DNA of 64,000 nt from the NCBI GenBank assembly GCA_963772365.1, contig CAVYXA010000005.1:160001-224000 (forward strand), in the 5' to 3' direction. Below are positions 12,911-59,394 of the stretch, piece by piece. Numbering within the stretch: the first letter of the stretch is position 1; each line of letters starts with the position of its first letter. A program made the position numbers and the translations under genes. The notes beneath the pieces were generated by a model. The model saw only the letters and a list, made by a program, of their open reading frames with translations, searched no databases and had not been told where the DNA came from. Source of the DNA: an uncultured Verrucomicrobiae bacterium (lineage in GTDB: Bacteria; Verrucomicrobiota; Verrucomicrobiia; Chthoniobacterales; UBA10450).

Positions 12911-12920
12911 GATTCAATTA

Positions 12921-13029
12921 GCCACAGATGAACACCAGCCTTCGTCTGAAACTACGGCTTGGCAAGTGGATGAAACACGGATTTCCAGAACAGAATTCTC
13001 ATCCGTGAATATCCGTGTTAATCCGTGGC
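12921..13029. mobile_element. Gene-less copy of the GxxExxY-flanking inverted-repeat element, with a 32-nt insert in the left arm
   Basis: gccacagatgaacac[insert]ggatgaaacacggat, 18-nt spacer, atccgtgaatatccgtgttaatccgtggc. Confidence 0.7.
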
Positions 13030-14720
13030 TAAGTTCTTTCGCTCTTCTCCAGCAATTCCCGAATCAATTTCATTCGCTTTCGTTCTTTCGGACTGCGCGC
13101 GATCTGCGCGATCGTACGGTTCATTCGACGGCTCCAATTTCCACTCGCCGCCGTTCCAGGAATGTTGAATCGATATTTGCGCGCCAGCAGATCTGTAATC
13201 ATGACCACCGCGATCCACGATTCGCTCTGGAAAAGCGCCTTCATGATCGCCGAATAAAAATCGTTCTCGTAGCTGATCGGTTCTTCCCGTGCCGAAACCC
13301 CGGCGAATTCGGCAATCTTGTTCAACGCGTCTCGCGCCTGGTCCGAAGTCGATGTGGTCCGCTCGACCGCTTCTTCCCACAACTTTCGCAACGGTTTGTG
13401 ATCGTGCGTGGCATACGTCGCAACGGAAAGCCGGTCGTACTCCGAACCGGGAGTAACACGTCCGCCATAGACTTCCCATTGCGGGATCTTGAAACCGGCG
13501 ATGCCGAGAGAGCGCAAACTTGGTCGCACATAATCGGGCACCGTCCCCAGATCTTCGCCGATCACCCGCTCATTGCCGGATTCCTCAAGAACGACGCGCA
13601 AGTATTTCTCTCCCTCCTGCCGGTTTGCTTCGCACTCCCGCGGATTCGAATCGTCTCGCGGAACAAAATGGGGCGCGCGGCCGCCGGTGCGTTCGAGCAT
13701 GTCATTCCACTCCAGATCTAAAAATTCCTTGTTCCGCGATGGTCGCCACGGGAACGCATAGATCCGATAAAATCCAAGCACATGATCGATCCGGAAAAGA
13801 TGAAAGATACGCCGGACGCCACGCACGCGCAGACGCCACCAATCGAAGTTGCGCGACCGCATCACATCCCAGCGATAGAGTGGGATCCCCCAGTTTTGTC
13901 CCCATTTTTGGGTAAACTCGTCGTCCTTGAAATATTGTTCCGGTGGCGCGCCTCCCGACCAGTCGAGCGCAAATTCGTCAGGCCGGGCAAAAACATCCGC
14001 GCTGTAATAACTGACCCCGAATGGGATGTCGCCCATCAAGGCCACTCCGCGTTCGTCGGCAAAATTTTTGATGTCGCGCCATTGCTCGTGCGCGATCCAT
14101 TGCACGTATCGAAACAAATTCTGTCGTTGTTCGAATCTTCGTCGTCGATCTTTCGGCAAACCGCGAAACCAGTCGTGTGCGGCAGCCGTGGTAGAAGTGT
14201 TCCATTGGTCCCAATTTTCTCGTTCGCCGTTCTCCTCCATCAGGGTGCGAAATAACGCATAGCCATCGAGCCAGTCGGTCTCCTCGCGGCAAAAGTCGCG
14301 GAACGCCGATTGTCGATCCTCGCCCGCTCCATCGCAAAACCGAGTAAAGGCTTTCTCCAGCAAGCGCCGCTTCAATTTCTTGACCGGCGCATATTTTACC
14401 GGGCAGCGCCGCAGTTTCGTTAGATCGACATCAGCGATAGCCGCCGAGAAATCCTCCGAAGTCAATTCCTTCGGGCTGCCCGGCGCGAGGTGAATCGTCG
14501 TCGGCTCGATCGCCATTGCACTGATCGCGTTGTAAGGACTATCATCGCCGCCGATTTCGTTAATCGGCAACAGTTGGATCAACTTGAATCCGCTCTCCGA
14601 GACCCAATCAATCAGTTGCCGCAACGTTTCCACGTCGCCAATCCCGAGATCGTCTTCCCGCCGCAGAGCGAATAATGGCGCCAGGACTCCCGCGATTTTT
14701 TTCTCCGGAGAAAGATTCAT
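13029..14720 (-). CDS. malQ: 4-alpha-glucanotransferase (GH77)
   Basis: LGIGD, QLLPIN, SPYN, MGDIP, GAPP, GQNWGIPLY, FRIDHVLG, GEDLG, THDH. Confidence 0.95.
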   Translation of the reverse strand: MNLSPEKKIAGVLAPLFALRREDDLGIGDVETLRQLIDWVSESGFKLIQLLPINEIGGDDSPYNAISAMAIEPTTIHLAPGSPKELTSEDFSAAIADVDLTKLRRCPVKYAPVKKLKRRLLEKAFTRFCDGAGEDRQSAFRDFCREETDWLDGYALFRTLMEENGERENWDQWNTSTTAAAHDWFRGLPKDRRRRFEQRQNLFRYVQWIAHEQWRDIKNFADERGVALMGDIPFGVSYYSADVFARPDEFALDWSGGAPPEQYFKDDEFTQKWGQNWGIPLYRWDVMRSRNFDWWRLRVRGVRRIFHLFRIDHVLGFYRIYAFPWRPSRNKEFLDLEWNDMLERTGGRAPHFVPRDDSNPRECEANRQEGEKYLRVVLEESGNERVIGEDLGTVPDYVRPSLRSLGIAGFKIPQWEVYGGRVTPGSEYDRLSVATYATHDHKPLRKLWEEAVERTTSTSDQARDALNKIAEFAGVSAREEPISYENDFYSAIMKALFQSESWIAVVMITDLLARKYRFNIPGTAASGNWSRRMNRTIAQIARSPKERKRMKLIRELLEKSERT

Positions 14721-14726
14721 TCCTTA

Positions 14727-14756
14727 GCCACGGATGAACACGGACGAAACACGGAT
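14727..14756 (+). repeat. Left 30-bp inverted repeat of the GxxExxY element
   Basis: gccacggatgaacacggacgaaacacggat (three CACGGAT-type units). Confidence 0.9.
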
Positions 14757-15151
14757 TAAAAGATCAGGCGTTTGTACTCAACTTTGAGTCGGCCGAAGTT
14801 GATTAGCAGACCAACCTTGAGCCCGGTTGCTTTTAGCTCGTTCAGCAATTGCGCCTCGTCCCGCTTGTCGTACTGCGGATTTACTTTGATTTCGACAGCA
14901 ACGGAATCGACGACTATCAAGTCGGCATCATAATCTCCAACGACGACGCCTTTGTATTGGACTTGAATGCGTTTTTCAATTTCTGCAGCGACACCGCGAT
15001 TGATCAATTCCACTTGCAATGCTCGCTGGTAGACTCGTTCCAGAAATCCATATCCAAGTTGCTGGTGAACTTCGAATGCAGCTCCGATGATCGCTTCGGT
15101 AGTAGCCCGGTGTAGCAGTTTGTCCGGGTGTTCGTCCTGGATTTCTAACAT
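14756..15151 (-). CDS. GxxExxY protein (PD-(D/E)XK nuclease superfamily)
   Basis: GFLERVY motif, ADLIV...VEIK catalytic motif, QLLNELKATG.KVGLLINFG. Confidence 0.95.
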   Translation of the reverse strand: MLEIQDEHPDKLLHRATTEAIIGAAFEVHQQLGYGFLERVYQRALQVELINRGVAAEIEKRIQVQYKGVVVGDYDADLIVVDSVAVEIKVNPQYDKRDEAQLLNELKATGLKVGLLINFGRLKVEYKRLIF

Positions 15152-15157
15152 TCCGTT

Positions 15158-15187
15158 ATCCGTGTTTCATCCGTGTTCATCCGTGGC
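15158..15187 (-). repeat. Right 30-bp inverted repeat of the GxxExxY element
   Basis: atccgtgtttcatccgtgttcatccgtggc is the reverse complement of 14727-14756 with one mismatch. Confidence 0.9.
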
Positions 15188-15192
15188 AAAAA

Positions 15193-17193
15193 TCAAGATC
15201 GGCTTACCTGCCAATCTTCGACGAGATTGTTTGGAATTTCTTTGAGGAACCGGGATGGCCTTTGGAAGACGTCGCCATAGCCGGCATTCAATCGCATGTG
15301 CGGATACGTGAGATACAGCTCGTCTTTCGCGCGGGTGATTGCCACATAGAACAACCGCCGCTCTTCTTCGAGCGCTTCACGAGTATCGAGCGAACGGCTG
15401 CTGGGAAACATTCCGTCGGTGAGCCAAATGACGAATACCGAATGGAATTCCAATCCTTTGGCCTGATGGACCGTGGAAAGATTCACCGCTTCTTTCTCCG
15501 CGGTCTGGTTCGGCGCAGCCTCAGCATCGACATTGCTGATGAGCGCGAGCTGGGCCAGAAATTCGTTTACATTCTTGAACTGACGCGAGAAAGCCGCCAG
15601 CTGGTTCAAATCTTCCTTGCGCAGCTCGTAATTGGTGAAGTTCACTTTCGCATAGTCATCGTAGATCGCTTCGACAACAGAGGTGATCATTTCCGAGGGA
15701 GGAATCGGCTGACCGCCCGGCGCGATCTCATTCAGGGTGTGCGCCAGTTGCGTCCAGGATTTCTTCGATTTCGCCGGCACATTCATCGCCAGAAATTCCT
15801 GTCCGAAGTTCTGGCCAGAATCGCGTATTCCGCTCTCCCATGTATTCCATAAATTCTCGGCGGTTCGATTTCCGATTCCGGGGAGCAACTTGACCATTCG
15901 CTTAAACGCAACTTCATCCCGAGGATTCGCCACGAATCGAATGAACGCCGTTACATCCTTGATGTGGGCCTGCTCGAAAAATCGGATCCCACTTGTGATC
16001 TGATAGGGAATGCCACGGCGGGAAAGCTCGAGCTGCAACTCGAGCGCGTGATAATGCGCCCGATATAACACCGCGATCTCGTTAAGATCGACATTCTCAT
16101 CGCGCAACTCGAGAATCCGTTGAGCCACGAATTGCGCCTGCTCACTCCCGTCGTTTAAGGCAACGACCGCAGGCTTGACCTCACTTGATTCCCGCGTCGG
16201 TGAAAGATTTTTCCGGAACTGCTCGACATTCGCAGCAATCGCCGCGTTTGCGACCTCCAGCACCTCTGGCACGCTCCGGTAATTCATCTCAATCTTGAAC
16301 ACCTGTGCGCCCGGATAGCGTTTCGGAAATTCGAGAATGTTCTTAAAGTTCGCGCCTCGCCAGGAATAGATCGACTGCGCGTCGTCGCCGACAACCATTA
16401 CGTTGCGATGTTCCGCTGCGAGCGTGTCGATGAAGTCGGCCTGGATCTTGTTCGTGTCCTGATATTCATCAACGAGGATGAATTGAAATTGCCGCCGATA
16501 AATCTCCGTGATCCGCTCGTGCTGTTTTAACATCGACAATGTCTTCTCCAGCAGGTCGTCGAAATCGACCGAGTTAGTGGCCTTTTTCTTCTTCTCGTAA
16601 CGCGCCTGGATATCTTTGATCTTGTCCAGTAGCGGGAGGAAATACGGAAATTTCTCGGCGAGCAATTCCTCGATTGGCGTTTCCGTGTTTACGACGAAGC
16701 TGAAAATTTCGGCCAGCACATCGCCTTTCGGGAACCGGATTTCCCTGGGATCAATTCCAGCGCTGGCCACTACAGTGTTGATCAAATCTTTTTGATCTTC
16801 ACGGTCCATGATGGTGAAGCCGCTGGAATAACCGAGCGCGCTGCCATGACGTCGCAGCATGCGATTCCCGATCGAGTGGAACGTCCCGCCCCAGATTCCA
16901 CTCGCATCAAAGGGCAGCAGATTCGCCACGCGATCGAGCATTTGGCGCGCGGCCTTGTTCGTAAAAGTGAGCAGCAAAATATTTCGCGGATCGATTCCGT
17001 TCTCGAGGAGATACGCCACGCGATATGTCAGCGTCCGTGTTTTGCCCGATCCCGCGCCAGCGATGACGAGCAGTGGCCCTGGCGGCGCGGTCACGGCCGC
17101 GTGCTGTTGCTCATTCAATTCCGCCGCATAATCGATATGGATCCCGCCGTCGCGGGATGCTGGTGCGTGTTGGAGCGTGTATTGGCGAGACAT
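15193..17193 (-). CDS. UvrD/PcrA/Rep family ATP-dependent helicase
   Basis: AGAGSGKT, TFTNKAA, VDEYQD, VGDDAQSIY, STVHQAKGLEF, EERRLFYVAITRAK. Confidence 0.95.
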   Translation of the reverse strand: MSRQYTLQHAPASRDGGIHIDYAAELNEQQHAAVTAPPGPLLVIAGAGSGKTRTLTYRVAYLLENGIDPRNILLLTFTNKAARQMLDRVANLLPFDASGIWGGTFHSIGNRMLRRHGSALGYSSGFTIMDREDQKDLINTVVASAGIDPREIRFPKGDVLAEIFSFVVNTETPIEELLAEKFPYFLPLLDKIKDIQARYEKKKKATNSVDFDDLLEKTLSMLKQHERITEIYRRQFQFILVDEYQDTNKIQADFIDTLAAEHRNVMVVGDDAQSIYSWRGANFKNILEFPKRYPGAQVFKIEMNYRSVPEVLEVANAAIAANVEQFRKNLSPTRESSEVKPAVVALNDGSEQAQFVAQRILELRDENVDLNEIAVLYRAHYHALELQLELSRRGIPYQITSGIRFFEQAHIKDVTAFIRFVANPRDEVAFKRMVKLLPGIGNRTAENLWNTWESGIRDSGQNFGQEFLAMNVPAKSKKSWTQLAHTLNEIAPGGQPIPPSEMITSVVEAIYDDYAKVNFTNYELRKEDLNQLAAFSRQFKNVNEFLAQLALISNVDAEAAPNQTAEKEAVNLSTVHQAKGLEFHSVFVIWLTDGMFPSSRSLDTREALEEERRLFYVAITRAKDELYLTYPHMRLNAGYGDVFQRPSRFLKEIPNNLVEDWQVSRS

Positions 17194-17236
17194 TTGGCGG
17201 TTCTGCAACGAACCGCAGCAACCGGTTCGACGCAAC

Positions 17237-19510
17237 TCAACGGACCGCGACGCGAGACGAAGCCGCCCGTCCGTGATCGTCGAGAGCGGTGATCTCATAA
17301 TCGCCAGTGCCCGGCTTCCATAAACACACGTCACCGCACGCCGCCGTTCCGATCAAAGTTTTGCCCGCAAACCAGTAAATTTCGCGAACATCGCCGTCCG
17401 TTTTCGCTTTTAACGGAATGCTTTTCGAGGATGTGAGTACAATTCGTTGTCCCTCGGCCGGCGAAATGATTCGCGGAGGAGTTCCATCGCGAGCCGCGAG
17501 TTCAACTGACGAGCCGGGCAGAAATGGCGGCGGCAATTTCCGAGGCAATCCGGCGCTGGCAAAGAGCGTCATAAATTCGCTGGACCAGAATTCGTAGATT
17601 TCATGGCGCAAAACGTGTCTGCCGTCATCAACCGGCAGGCGCAATCCGGTGGCTACATCGACGAGCACTTCGCGATGAACATCGCAGGTTTTAATCGGCG
17701 AAACTCCGGGAATGAACCAGCCCTCGACGCGCTGCGTGCAGAACGGCCCGGGCAAATCGCCCGAGACAGCGCAAAATTCCACGCGTTTCAGATTTGCACC
17801 GGCCAGCGGCAAATGCGGTTCGTTAGGCTGTGGCCAGGTCGCGCGCAGACTATCGATGATCCGGAACAGCAGCGGAGCGGCTGCGCTTCGCCCGATGAAG
17901 TTTGGATTGGCGCGGCCATCGAAGTTCCCGATCCAAACAGCAAGCACATAATGATCGAAGATCGCCACCGACCAGGCATCGCGAAAACCGTGCGATGTTC
18001 CAGTTTTCCAAAAGACCGGCGCCATTCGTGTCGAATCCGCGCAGGCCATTTCCGGTCTGGGCTGATCCAGCATTTCAATGGTAAGAAAAACAGCTTCGGG
18101 TGAAATGAGGCGCGACGCGTTCGCGGCAATCGGATCGCTGCGAACGCGGCGGAGTGGACGAAGTTCTCCTTCATTCGCCAAAGCGGCGTAGAGTCGAACC
18201 AGGTTCTCCATCGAAATTTCTGCCCCGCCAAGCGGAAGCGTTAGGCCATAGGTCGATTCCGAACCTGCCAACGGAACACCGGCGCGGCGGAGAAATTCGT
18301 AGAAGGTCGGGTGCGACAGTTTCGAGGCCAGTTCGATTGCGGGGAGATTTCGGCTGCGGGCGAGCGCGTCGGTTGCGCGAATCGGGCCGAGAAACTCGCG
18401 ATCGAAATTCTCCGGATTATAATCGCCGAAACTTCGCGGCGCATCGGCCAGGATCGACAACGGATGAATCAAACCTTGATCGATCGCGAGCGCGTAAACA
18501 AACGGCTTTAGTGCCGAGCCCGGCGAGCGCGGACTGCGTGTTCCGTCGACCTGTCCCTGAATTGCCGCGTTGAAAAAATCGGCGGAACCGATTTGCGCGA
18601 GCACATCCATCGTGCGGGAGTCGATCAGCAATGCCGCAGCGTTCTGCATTCCGCGATTTCGATTCATCCGAATGTAACCGGCGACACGGCGCTCGATCAG
18701 TTGCTGTCGATCCAAATCGAGCGTGGTTACGATCGCTCGCTCGTTTCTGCGTGTTATCAGAACTTGCTGAACAAAATGTGGCGCTAAAAATTCAGGCTCT
18801 GTCTCTGCTCGCGGCCGGAACAAAATTGCCGCATCGCTGTTATGTCGGGTGCGCCGGGAGAGAACGGCATTCAGCGCGTGATTCTCGCGATCGACCAGCA
18901 GCGCGCGTCGCGAAGGACTTTGCGGAATCATGCTCAAAGCGATCGATTCAGGCCGGCTTAAACGCGCGGCAGGCTTCACGAAGTAGAATTCGCTCGCCGC
19001 GGCTGCGCCTTCGATGTTTCGCCCATACGGCGCGAGATTCAGATACGCTTCGAGAATTTCGTCTTTCGAGTAATGACGTTCGATTTCCAGAGCCAGCAGG
19101 ATTTGATTTAACTTTCCAGCGAATGTTCGCGTGTGCAGATGAAAACGGAGACGCGCCAGTTGCATCGTGATTGTCGATGCTCCCATGCGCGGAGCGCCAC
19201 GCAACAAACCAACTGTGGAGCGAAATAAGGCGACCGGATTCACGCCCGGATGACGCCAAAAATATTTATCTTCGTATCGCAGCGTCGCACCGATCAGTTC
19301 CGGGGAGATGTCACGCAGCGGTGTAAGGATTCGAAATTTCTGGTCGGAAGTGAGCGTGACTCTGAGCAATTTGCCATTTCGATCGCGAACAGATTGCGAG
19401 AACGAAACACCGTCGAGCAACTGTGGCTTTGGCAATGCGAGCCAGAATGCAACAGCTAATACGGCGAGAAATAAGAGCGACCGCAGCGTCTTCTTCAATC
19501 GCATGTTCAT
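17237..19510 (-). CDS. pbpC: Penicillin-binding protein 1C
   Basis: Transglycosylase (YEDK, GASTITMQLAR), transpeptidase (SPGSALKP, SRN, KTGTS), C-terminal domain; adjacent to alpha-2-macroglobulin. Confidence 0.95.
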   Translation of the reverse strand: MNMRLKKTLRSLLFLAVLAVAFWLALPKPQLLDGVSFSQSVRDRNGKLLRVTLTSDQKFRILTPLRDISPELIGATLRYEDKYFWRHPGVNPVALFRSTVGLLRGAPRMGASTITMQLARLRFHLHTRTFAGKLNQILLALEIERHYSKDEILEAYLNLAPYGRNIEGAAAASEFYFVKPAARLSRPESIALSMIPQSPSRRALLVDRENHALNAVLSRRTRHNSDAAILFRPRAETEPEFLAPHFVQQVLITRRNERAIVTTLDLDRQQLIERRVAGYIRMNRNRGMQNAAALLIDSRTMDVLAQIGSADFFNAAIQGQVDGTRSPRSPGSALKPFVYALAIDQGLIHPLSILADAPRSFGDYNPENFDREFLGPIRATDALARSRNLPAIELASKLSHPTFYEFLRRAGVPLAGSESTYGLTLPLGGAEISMENLVRLYAALANEGELRPLRRVRSDPIAANASRLISPEAVFLTIEMLDQPRPEMACADSTRMAPVFWKTGTSHGFRDAWSVAIFDHYVLAVWIGNFDGRANPNFIGRSAAAPLLFRIIDSLRATWPQPNEPHLPLAGANLKRVEFCAVSGDLPGPFCTQRVEGWFIPGVSPIKTCDVHREVLVDVATGLRLPVDDGRHVLRHEIYEFWSSEFMTLFASAGLPRKLPPPFLPGSSVELAARDGTPPRIISPAEGQRIVLTSSKSIPLKAKTDGDVREIYWFAGKTLIGTAACGDVCLWKPGTGDYEITALDDHGRAASSRVAVR

Positions 19511-45127: not shown

Positions 45128-45197
45128 TGTAGCGGCGCTCTGTGAGCGTCGCAAAGTTCCCACCCAAGAATGGCGACGGTCACAGACCGCCGCTACA
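45128..45197. repeat. GTAG-type REP doublet (REPIN) between convergent genes
   Basis: tgtagcggcgctctgtgagcgtcgc / gcgacggtcacagaccgccgctaca, 23/25 complementary. Confidence 0.85.
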
Positions 45198-59317: not shown

Positions 59318-59394
59318 GCCACAGATGAACACGGATGAAACACGGATGTAAAGGCCTCACTGCTGATCTGTGAAAATCCGTGCTAATCCGTGGC
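59318..59394. mobile_element. Gene-less copy of the GxxExxY-flanking inverted-repeat element
   Basis: gccacagatgaacacggatgaaacacggat, 18-nt spacer, atctgtgaaaatccgtgctaatccgtggc. Confidence 0.75.

Follow-up and report, generated by a model that had tools for sequence, protein, structure and literature searches.

The window (the whole 64,000-nucleotide stretch of DNA that we analyzed, from the genome that we call G000) contains a small cassette that fills the 472-nt gap between a uvrD-like helicase gene and malQ (Table 1). An earlier reading, made from the sequence only, had described this cassette as a 131-amino-acid GxxExxY gene between 30-bp inverted arms, each with three CACGGAT-type units, in a tiny gap between uvrD-like and malQ genes; it also reported that the stop codon overlaps one arm by one base and that 6 nt separate the ATG from the other. 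All of these claims proved correct. One arm is the reverse complement of the other except at 1 of 30 positions (96.7%), the protein matches both PF13366 and TIGR04256, and profile matches confirm the identities of the neighboring genes. The units are 7 bp each and of the form CAC(A/G)GAT, with starts at 14729, 14739, and 14750 in the first arm, which are spacings of 10 and 11. A further claim, that a degenerate unit recurs in the first codons of the gene, did not hold up: we found no match to CAC(A/G)GAT there, and the putative unit falls in the variable N terminus.

The complementarity of the arms stretches to 33 nt at 94%; the whole window has 14 inverted pairs of at least 20 nt (within 700 nt of each other), and this pair is the longest. 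We counted the two-unit arm pattern 5 times in the window and 0 times in 100 shuffles. The arms lie just 5 nt from the helicase gene and 6 nt from malQ. The transcript of the cassette is predicted to fold (z = -6.3), which would bring the stop codon of uvrD beside the start of malQ. No promoter-like site was found on the GxxExxY gene's strand at this locus, and the gene is probably read from the operon. The near-perfect match of the two arms over 30 bp appears to be partly luck, because in relatives, the linkers between the units differ from arm to arm. Elsewhere in the window (45128-45197) there is a short hairpin of the intergenic type, with 25-nt arms at 92%, that is unrelated to the GxxExxY arms.

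Table 1. Features of the cassette and its surroundings, in window coordinates
Feature	Position	Strand	Comment
3' (downstream) arm	14727..14756		GC and three units of the CAC(A/G)GAT type; the stop codon's final base doubles as its innermost base
GxxExxY gene, 131 aa, PD-(D/E)XK fold	14756..15151	-	putative catalytic residues E38, D77, E87, K89, Q101
5' (upstream) arm	15158..15187		reverse complement of the 3' arm; lies 6 nt ahead of the ATG
uvrD/pcrA-like helicase gene (upstream host gene)	15193..17334	-	mechanical ORF start; true start is probably later
malQ, GH77 4-alpha-glucanotransferase (downstream host gene)	13029..14720	-	start is 6 nt outside the arm
Gene-less pair of the window's arm type, malQ-mdh gap	12920..13029		one arm is interrupted, within its second unit, by ~32 nt of foreign sequence
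Gene-less pair of the window's arm type	59318..59394		three units per arm, spacer of 18 nt; the two flanking genes are co-oriented

The window's protein is a plain member of the PDDEXK_3/PF13366/TIGR04256 family. It matches PF13366 with E = 2.5e-35 (121.8 bits, with a cut-off of 22) and TIGR04256 with E = 8.9e-37 (126 bits, with a cut-off of 35), and PF13366 is its only match in Pfam. The proposal that it belongs to the PD-(D/E)XK superfamily is supported by a confident AlphaFold2 model (pLDDT 91.5), by the matches of the predicted fold, and by the kept acidic residues and lysine. According to Foldseek, the top match of the model is SSO0001 (E = 5.9e-5), which we take to be a Cas4, followed by the LHK and lambda exonucleases and Hjc. 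A wide structure search also found SSO0001 (Z = 8.5, rmsd 4.1, 100 aligned), with three other entries within 1. Every top match belongs to the PD-(D/E)XK superfamily. The E, D, ExK, and QxxxY motifs are those of the RecB family. Among 56 sequences, E38 is kept in 52, D77 in 53, E87 in 55, K89 in 54, and Q101 in all 56; the tyrosine of the family's QxxxY motif is mostly glutamate in the window's clade (46/56). In an alignment of 102 rows, E38, E87, and K89 are invariant and D77 is present in at least 90%. The protein thus seems to have a minimal RecB/Cas4-like fold with its catalytic residues kept, on the basis of a modest structural match. A common fold by itself does not show a function.

For the window's protein, there were no matches in PADLOC, PHROGs, or a sequence search of the PDB, and there was no usable match in the ESM Atlas beyond PF13366. 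A search of IMG/VR with a paralog found two weak partial matches. The family is very large (16,805 clusters at 50% identity, with E <= 1e-10). GxxExxY genes are present in 102 of 201 genomes from the phylum, and some GxxExxY gene is present in 133 of 151 genomes from the family of bacteria that G000 belongs to. Homologs were found on 6 of 72,556 plasmids and on 0 of 50,697 phages. The median dN/dS of the GxxExxY genes is ~0.10 (21 unsaturated pairs), compared to 0.075 and 0.13 for the flanking genes. About 30 of the best 150 cluster representatives (P0121-P0144) have two GxxExxY stretches in one chain, and these could have arisen by tandem fusion or by reading through tandem cassettes. The accessible part of a previous account (PMC3424549) lists the function of PDDEXK_3/PF13366 as "Unknown" and mentions "multiple transfers, mixed clades"; arms, home sites, and in-place exchange do not appear in that part of the account.

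Arms accompany GxxExxY genes across phyla, instead of being generally absent from the family. An inverted-repeat score of 12 or above was reached at 33 of 34 loci from the family of bacteria, 24 of 28 from the phylum, and 58 of 79 from GTDB, and after shuffling, at 0, 1, and 1 loci. (One of the 142 loci was dropped for its short flanks, and the GTDB set came from a single sub-clade query.) Using unit classes that were defined from the same data, we found an inward 3' arm at 133 of 171 loci and an inward 5' arm at 107 of 171, versus 2 and 2 if we looked 400-500 nt further out. An archaeal locus (L283) is among the arm-framed loci. The comparisons show a unit: one promoterless nuclease gene within two inward arrays, each with three 7-bp units that are spaced by 9-11 bp.

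As the earlier reading had anticipated, the repeat and the protein covary. On a protein tree with 142 labeled rows from ~15 phyla (29 rows without a class were excluded), the unit class changes 31 times, versus a mean of 82 and a minimum of 74 if the labels are shuffled. For the 57 named GTDB rows, unit class requires 17 changes (shuffled minimum 20) and phylum requires 31 (shuffled minimum 31). Arm class tracks the protein better than the host does. This covariation is predicted by linkage alone, and it indicates a unit rather than recognition. The identity of one residue (N versus S/T) is linked to the last base of the unit in 138 of 140 cases, which rest on about one deep split. Direct repeats of at least 45 nt are present on both sides of the gene at 20 of 141 loci, and these often comprise a whole hairpin and the same spacer. 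At L059 and L247, direct repeats span the gene's end, the arm, and the start of the next gene, which suggests tandem duplication of whole cassettes.

G000 contains six GxxExxY genes (seven HMM matches, as one gene is frameshifted), and its five intact paralogs are 33-50% identical. All six genes lie in a small gap between inward arms with their own motif: CAC(A/G)GAT, CGCGAAT, CGCAGAT, CAC(A/G)GAG, CAGGAAAG, or ACAGAAT. The window's arms also form ten pairs without a gene, of which nine were identified by pattern and one is the split pair at 12920-13029; as a control, we searched G000 for outward-facing pairs of these arms and found 0. The spacers of the ten pairs are unrelated and their sites are scattered. 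Four of the five other motifs have 1-4 gene-less pairs each, and ACAGAAT has none. Using a crude gene call, the gene-less pairs are mostly intergenic and of either polarity (11 between co-oriented genes, 4 between divergent genes, 2 between convergent genes, and 2 inside ORFs), with orientations near the background rates. A piece similar to the ~32-nt piece in the split pair is found in a similar place in L017, and another lies within a different hairpin in L212. These pieces are one repeat family that inserts into the arms of another.

Some other genes in G000 also have repeats around them. Twelve genes for PF05635 four-helix-bundle proteins (L355-L366) lie in mRNA operons, and most of these have inward-facing arrays of 6-7-mers around them, with a motif specific to each gene. 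At G000:C1:377020-379069, there are five tandem GIY-YIG genes with a spacing of 321 nt, plus a sixth, with tRNA-like pieces between them, and the GIY-YIG gene at C6:263 is framed by tRNA-like direct repeats. Another GIY-YIG gene (G000:C3:612865) is framed by an abundant palindrome of the GTCATTCCGAGC type. This palindrome is also found in the uvrD-malQ gap of relatives and is nested in other hairpins (L145, L207, and L226).

Across 300 genomes from the family of bacteria, malQ was found in 255 and the window's clade of GxxExxY proteins (E <= 1e-30) was found in 70, with a single copy in 69 of the 71 matched genomes. We viewed 50 of the 74 matches: 42 lie between uvrD and malQ, all of them co-oriented with the operon, and the remaining 8, which have the same arms, are spread over six other gaps. 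Four of these six gaps correspond to arm-free gaps in G000. A second clade of GxxExxY proteins, which is present in 37 of the 300 genomes, has a different home: 29 of 29 loci are at one other gap. As judged from these comparisons, each protein clade has its own unit and its own home gap in a housekeeping operon.

The gene is not fixed and syntenic in all relatives, which would have argued against a mobile element; it is patchy at its home site. Among 102 distinct uvrD-malQ junctions that we selected via malQ alone, 31 contain an open gene, 14 contain a broken gene or a remnant (so 45 have some trace of it), 54 contain hairpins of four other kinds without a gene, and 3 have nothing in them. (The labels for L131 and L142 are doubtful, and the census is of metagenome contigs, including near-duplicates and possible assembly errors.) On a host tree with 96 rows, the state of the junction changes at least 33 times (shuffled mean 47, minimum 41), and the gene-bearing junctions are nested within clades that have other hairpins. 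In the pair L192/L210, the flanks are ~95% identical up to the ATG of malQ and to a few bases before the stop codon of uvrD. Hairpin types also turn over in the malQ-mdh gap, with 0 GxxExxY genes in the junctions of 17 relatives. The malQ-mdh gap of L002, L003, L006, L010, and L012 still has, by the start of mdh, the outer end of an old CAC(A/G)GAT arm, and another type of hairpin occupies the rest.

One of the off-site cassettes, L097, came from the uvrD-malQ site and has a ragged end, because 75 nt of the start of malQ lie behind its arm (score 71, versus a maximum of 29 for shuffles). A uvrD-like piece ahead of L097 is marginal (32 versus 30). At the other seven off-site loci, carry-over of the flanks was not above shuffles; the match at L084 is at chance level and lies away from the arm. 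We saw no constant target duplication, by eye, at the 50 loci, which did not include a close pair of empty and filled new sites. Decay of the gene forms a series, from L205/L218 to L008 and then to gene-less pairs. The cassette decays to pairs of arms, and occasionally it arrives at a new gap, in some cases along with part of its old neighbor. In L179, L204, and L209, the middle of the GxxExxY gene is replaced by ~650 nt, and the arms and the ends of the gene stay; these are a cargo-carrying form of the cassette.

At the uvrD-malQ site, copies that came in from other lineages have overwritten the resident cassettes, and the breakpoints fall within the arms or a short way outside them. Across 56 loci, and using pieces of equal length, the correlation of distances between the gene and a flank is 0.18-0.25, versus 0.54-0.61 between the two flanks across the cassette. 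Across 49 loci, strong splits conflict in 11 of 16 cases for the gene and uvrD and in 12 of 16 cases for the gene and malQ, compared to 3 of 19 and 3 of 29 for uvrD and malQ. AU tests reject nearly all foreign trees, including those of one flank for the other, and from these tests we considered only the size of the gap (~830-1130 versus 120-300 log units), along with the split counts. Differences in rate cannot account for the conflict between the gene and its flanks because both directions occur. For instance, L188 and L206 have near-identical arms and a synonymous difference of 0.70 in the gene, versus 0.30 and 0.17 in the flanks, whereas L062 and L064 have a synonymous difference of 0.18 in the gene, versus 0.45 and 0.49 in the flanks.

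Near-identical hosts can have unrelated interiors between near-identical arms, and among 7 pairs of close hosts in which both genes are intact, the gene has been swapped in 6. L213 is a hybrid: an old arm is followed by a stub of 14 codons (41 nt, of which 38 are identical to L223, from the host's sister) and then by a whole divergent cassette. This arrangement gives the order of events, with the old gene overwritten by the divergent cassette. We considered whether the piece between the stub and the cassette could be the end of the donor's uvrD, and rejected this, as 18 of 100 shuffles score as high. There is a ~90-nt tract of co-conversion into malQ for L062/L063 and none for L192/L210; the mean excess is small compared to the control, and the partial correlation for co-conversion is weak (0.19 at best). 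At the second clade's site, the correlations are 0.22 and 0.40 (versus 0.46) and the split conflicts are 2 of 7 and 1 of 7 (versus 0 of 6), so the conflict between gene and flank is weak there. The window's own copy of the cassette is old, because its synonymous sites are near saturation relative to all eight relatives that we compared it to.

The counts for clades, malQ, loci, correlations, inverted and direct repeats, and residues include unpublished genomes, either as loci (G003, G008, G014, G141, G161, G188, and G225) or in tallies only (G217, G259, G273, and G283). These genomes were left out of the trees for splits, unit classes, and hosts, the 171-locus arm count, the junction census, the comparison of close-host pairs, the shuffle tests of flank carry-over, the dN/dS analysis, and the test of the second site. 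The named example pairs do not use them.

The arms could be sites on DNA or the stem of an RNA. In the 38 of 62 cassettes that we could parse, six positions of the unit are invariant in 220-228 of 228 units. In the same cassettes, the linkers match between arms about as often as expected (5 versus 3.8 expected and 20 versus 16.7), and we found no strand bias toward G.U among the arm mismatches (13 G.U versus 14 A.C). The A/G position agrees between paired units in 95 of 109 cases, and a hairpin would predict this as well. A spacing of 10-11 bp places the units on one face of the helix. Overall, the pattern is more in keeping with sites for a protein on double-stranded DNA than with the stem of an RNA. 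The cassette has no match in Rfam.

We propose that the cassette is a selfish, homing-like element whose nuclease cuts at the arm arrays and which is copied by recombinational repair. Given the comparative data, which show a unit, a home site, patchiness, overwriting in place, decay, and rare new sites, we lean slightly toward this explanation. The protein would bind the phased units, which are about one helical turn apart, on double-stranded DNA, and would nick or cut in or beside the arm array. The host's recombination machinery would mend the break from a donor that bears the cassette, with the arms and the flanking genes serving as regions of homology, and the gene would be copied. Gene-less pairs would be both deletion products and landing pads. 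Neither precise ends of the transposase type nor a target duplication would be required. Several observations weigh against this proposal. Conflict between gene and flank is weak at the second site, the tracts of co-conversion are short, and the window's own copy is old. Unrelated gene-less hairpins turn over at uvrD-malQ (33 changes) and at malQ-mdh, so turnover is not special to the GxxExxY gene. And since only 3 of 102 junctions are empty, the classical target of homing, an empty allele, is rare.

The scattered arm pairs bring to mind another explanation, which is mobilization like that of REPINs or MITEs: the nuclease would excise or copy arm-bounded DNA, whether or not this includes the gene, via an extruded hairpin or a circle, to new gaps, and the in-place swaps would reflect recurrent insertion, either into resident arms or into a slot where inserts are tolerated. 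This would account for ten scattered intergenic gene-less pairs with unrelated spacers and for the six off-site gaps. The direct repeats of at least 45 nt at 20 of 141 loci are what a single crossover of a circle would leave, and the fold matches include Hjc junction resolvases. But site fidelity is strong (42/50 and 29/29), the clade has one copy in 69 of 71 matched genomes, and the paralogs are only 33-50% identical. Also, the ends are imprecise (L097 and L213), no constant target duplication was seen by eye at 50 loci, and homologs are on just 6 of 72,556 plasmids and 0 of 50,697 phages. We consider this explanation to be unlikely. The nuclease might instead be a passenger, or be useful to the host (for defense, repair, or the policing of repeats), and be swapped by ordinary recombination among palindrome-rich gaps, with arms that are operators or anchors for recombination. 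Purifying selection (dN/dS ~0.10) and the presence of some GxxExxY gene in 133 of 151 genomes are consistent with a host function, as is the churn of unrelated hairpin types at both uvrD-malQ and malQ-mdh. The four-helix-bundle genes in G000 are framed alike and, to our knowledge, do not encode nucleases. On the other hand, 14 of 45 gene-bearing junctions are broken or remnants (some of which may be assembly errors), the window's clade is in just 70 of 300 genomes, there is no match in PADLOC for the window's protein, and the sites are in housekeeping operons, not defense islands. Unaided recombination would also have difficulty in producing swaps between genera with flanks that differ by 18-25%. 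We view a passenger or a host-useful nuclease as quite improbable.

An RNA-level element, akin to the intervening sequences of rRNA, has less still to recommend it, and we think it very unlikely. The arms would pair in the operon's mRNA and loop out the gene, and processing by RNase III or by the protein itself would hide the insert from the host. The predicted hairpin in the transcript (z = -6.3, with the uvrD stop next to the malQ start), the co-orientation of gene and operon at 42 of 42 on-site loci, and the matching of the A/G position across arms could all be explained in this way, and the accessible part of PMC4990558 describes intervening sequences of similar size with a 28-bp stem and an ORF. 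However, the arms lack a G.U strand bias (13 versus 14), their linkers are unpaired, and Rfam has no match. Gene-less pairs are found in either polarity and also between divergent or convergent genes, near background rates. Pairing in RNA would leave the spread of the cassette unexplained, and it could coexist with homing-like copying.

If the homing-like explanation is correct, it gives the GxxExxY family, which is very large and has no known function, a role, and it explains a class of abundant intergenic repeats. It would also extend homing to the gaps in bacterial chromosomal operons, with the element's own arms as the target. More tentatively, and with a little less than even confidence, we suggest that there is a large, undescribed class of selfish elements in bacteria and archaea, with the GxxExxY genes as its autonomous members. 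In this self-targeting class, dozens of orthogonal pairs of nuclease and motif would coexist. A simple residue-to-base code (such as N104 versus S/T for the last base) would let the nuclease read the phased array of three 7-mers, the element would home into the arms of resident or gene-less copies, and rival hairpins would be displaced from operon gaps. The natural orthogonal pairs (a 131-aa nuclease and a 7-mer array, with six in G000) make specificity directly testable, and they could yield very compact site-specific reagents. We found no description of an arm-framed GxxExxY element in the literature that we searched (mostly non-subscription, without supplements). The architecture appears to be categorically new, and the putative mechanism is borrowed from homing.

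How does the cassette compare to known systems? Insertion sequences and MITEs comprise an autonomous copy that bears a gene and internally deleted, non-autonomous copies with the same ends. The cassette similarly has gene-bearing and gene-less copies with the same ends. However, it has neither a DDE nor an HUH transposase, is not spread in many near-identical copies, is nearly absent from plasmids and phages, and has imprecise ends, with no constant target duplication by eye.

The intervening sequences of 23S rRNA that bear an ORF for S23p (PF05635) are about the size of the cassette, with a 28-bp stem, according to the accessible part of PMC4990558. Judging from that part, the two share a length of ~450 nt, terminal inverted repeats of ~30 bp, a single small ORF, and a scattered distribution, and the PF05635 genes of G000 have similar arrays, albeit in mRNA operons. 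The cassette differs in lying between protein-coding genes instead of in rRNA, in its nuclease fold, in the periodicity of its units, and in having no bias for RNA pairing.

The sequence-only reading proposed that the nuclease mobilizes the arms as RAYTs do for REPs. The idea of a mobile unit survives in part: gene and arms form one unit, there are gene-less copies, the site is polymorphic, and there are new sites. The parallel with RAYTs has to be revised, given that the gene is inside the arms, that one genome has six clades, and that exchange occurs between lineages at the home site. RAYTs are described, in the accessible part of 10.1101/2021.07.10.451892, as single-copy, immobile, congruent with the host, and outside of their REPINs. 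From what is given there, both systems have short intergenic hairpins with conserved inverted arms and a variable spacer, and in both, the hairpins are tied to a cognate enzyme with a lineage-specific match of sequence. The cassette shares the non-autonomous population of hairpins, but not the HUH/Tyr (Y1) transposase (PF01797 genes are elsewhere in G000), nor a single-copy, immobile gene whose tree is congruent with the host. Its arms are tandem 7-mers rather than palindromic REPs, there are about ten copies rather than hundreds, and it is also found in an archaeon (L283).

Free-standing homing endonucleases are the closest parallel. In phage T4, mobE is a promoterless nuclease gene between two co-transcribed housekeeping genes, and its spread by gene conversion, along with flanking DNA, has been shown (accessible part of PMC2790892). 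As far as that part of the account goes, mobE and the cassette share a fixed home site, patchy presence, and a position between genes; spread by gene conversion was demonstrated for mobE and is inferred for the cassette. A fixed site, patchiness, and exchange between lineages are all seen at uvrD-malQ, and more weakly at the second site. In contrast to homing endonucleases, the cassette is chromosomal and not on a phage, and its nuclease has a RecB/Cas4-like PD-(D/E)XK fold, not HNH or GIY-YIG. It is framed by its own arrays of units, it has a gene-less population, and it replaces occupied alleles, as empty ones are rare. Also, its protein has just 131 amino acids, without a separate DNA-binding domain. 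On the features that we tested, the cassette falls outside of the RAYTs, the insertion sequences, and the intervening sequences, and it has the comparative features of homing. Homing by gene conversion is a closer match for it than REP-type mobilization or cut-and-paste transposition.
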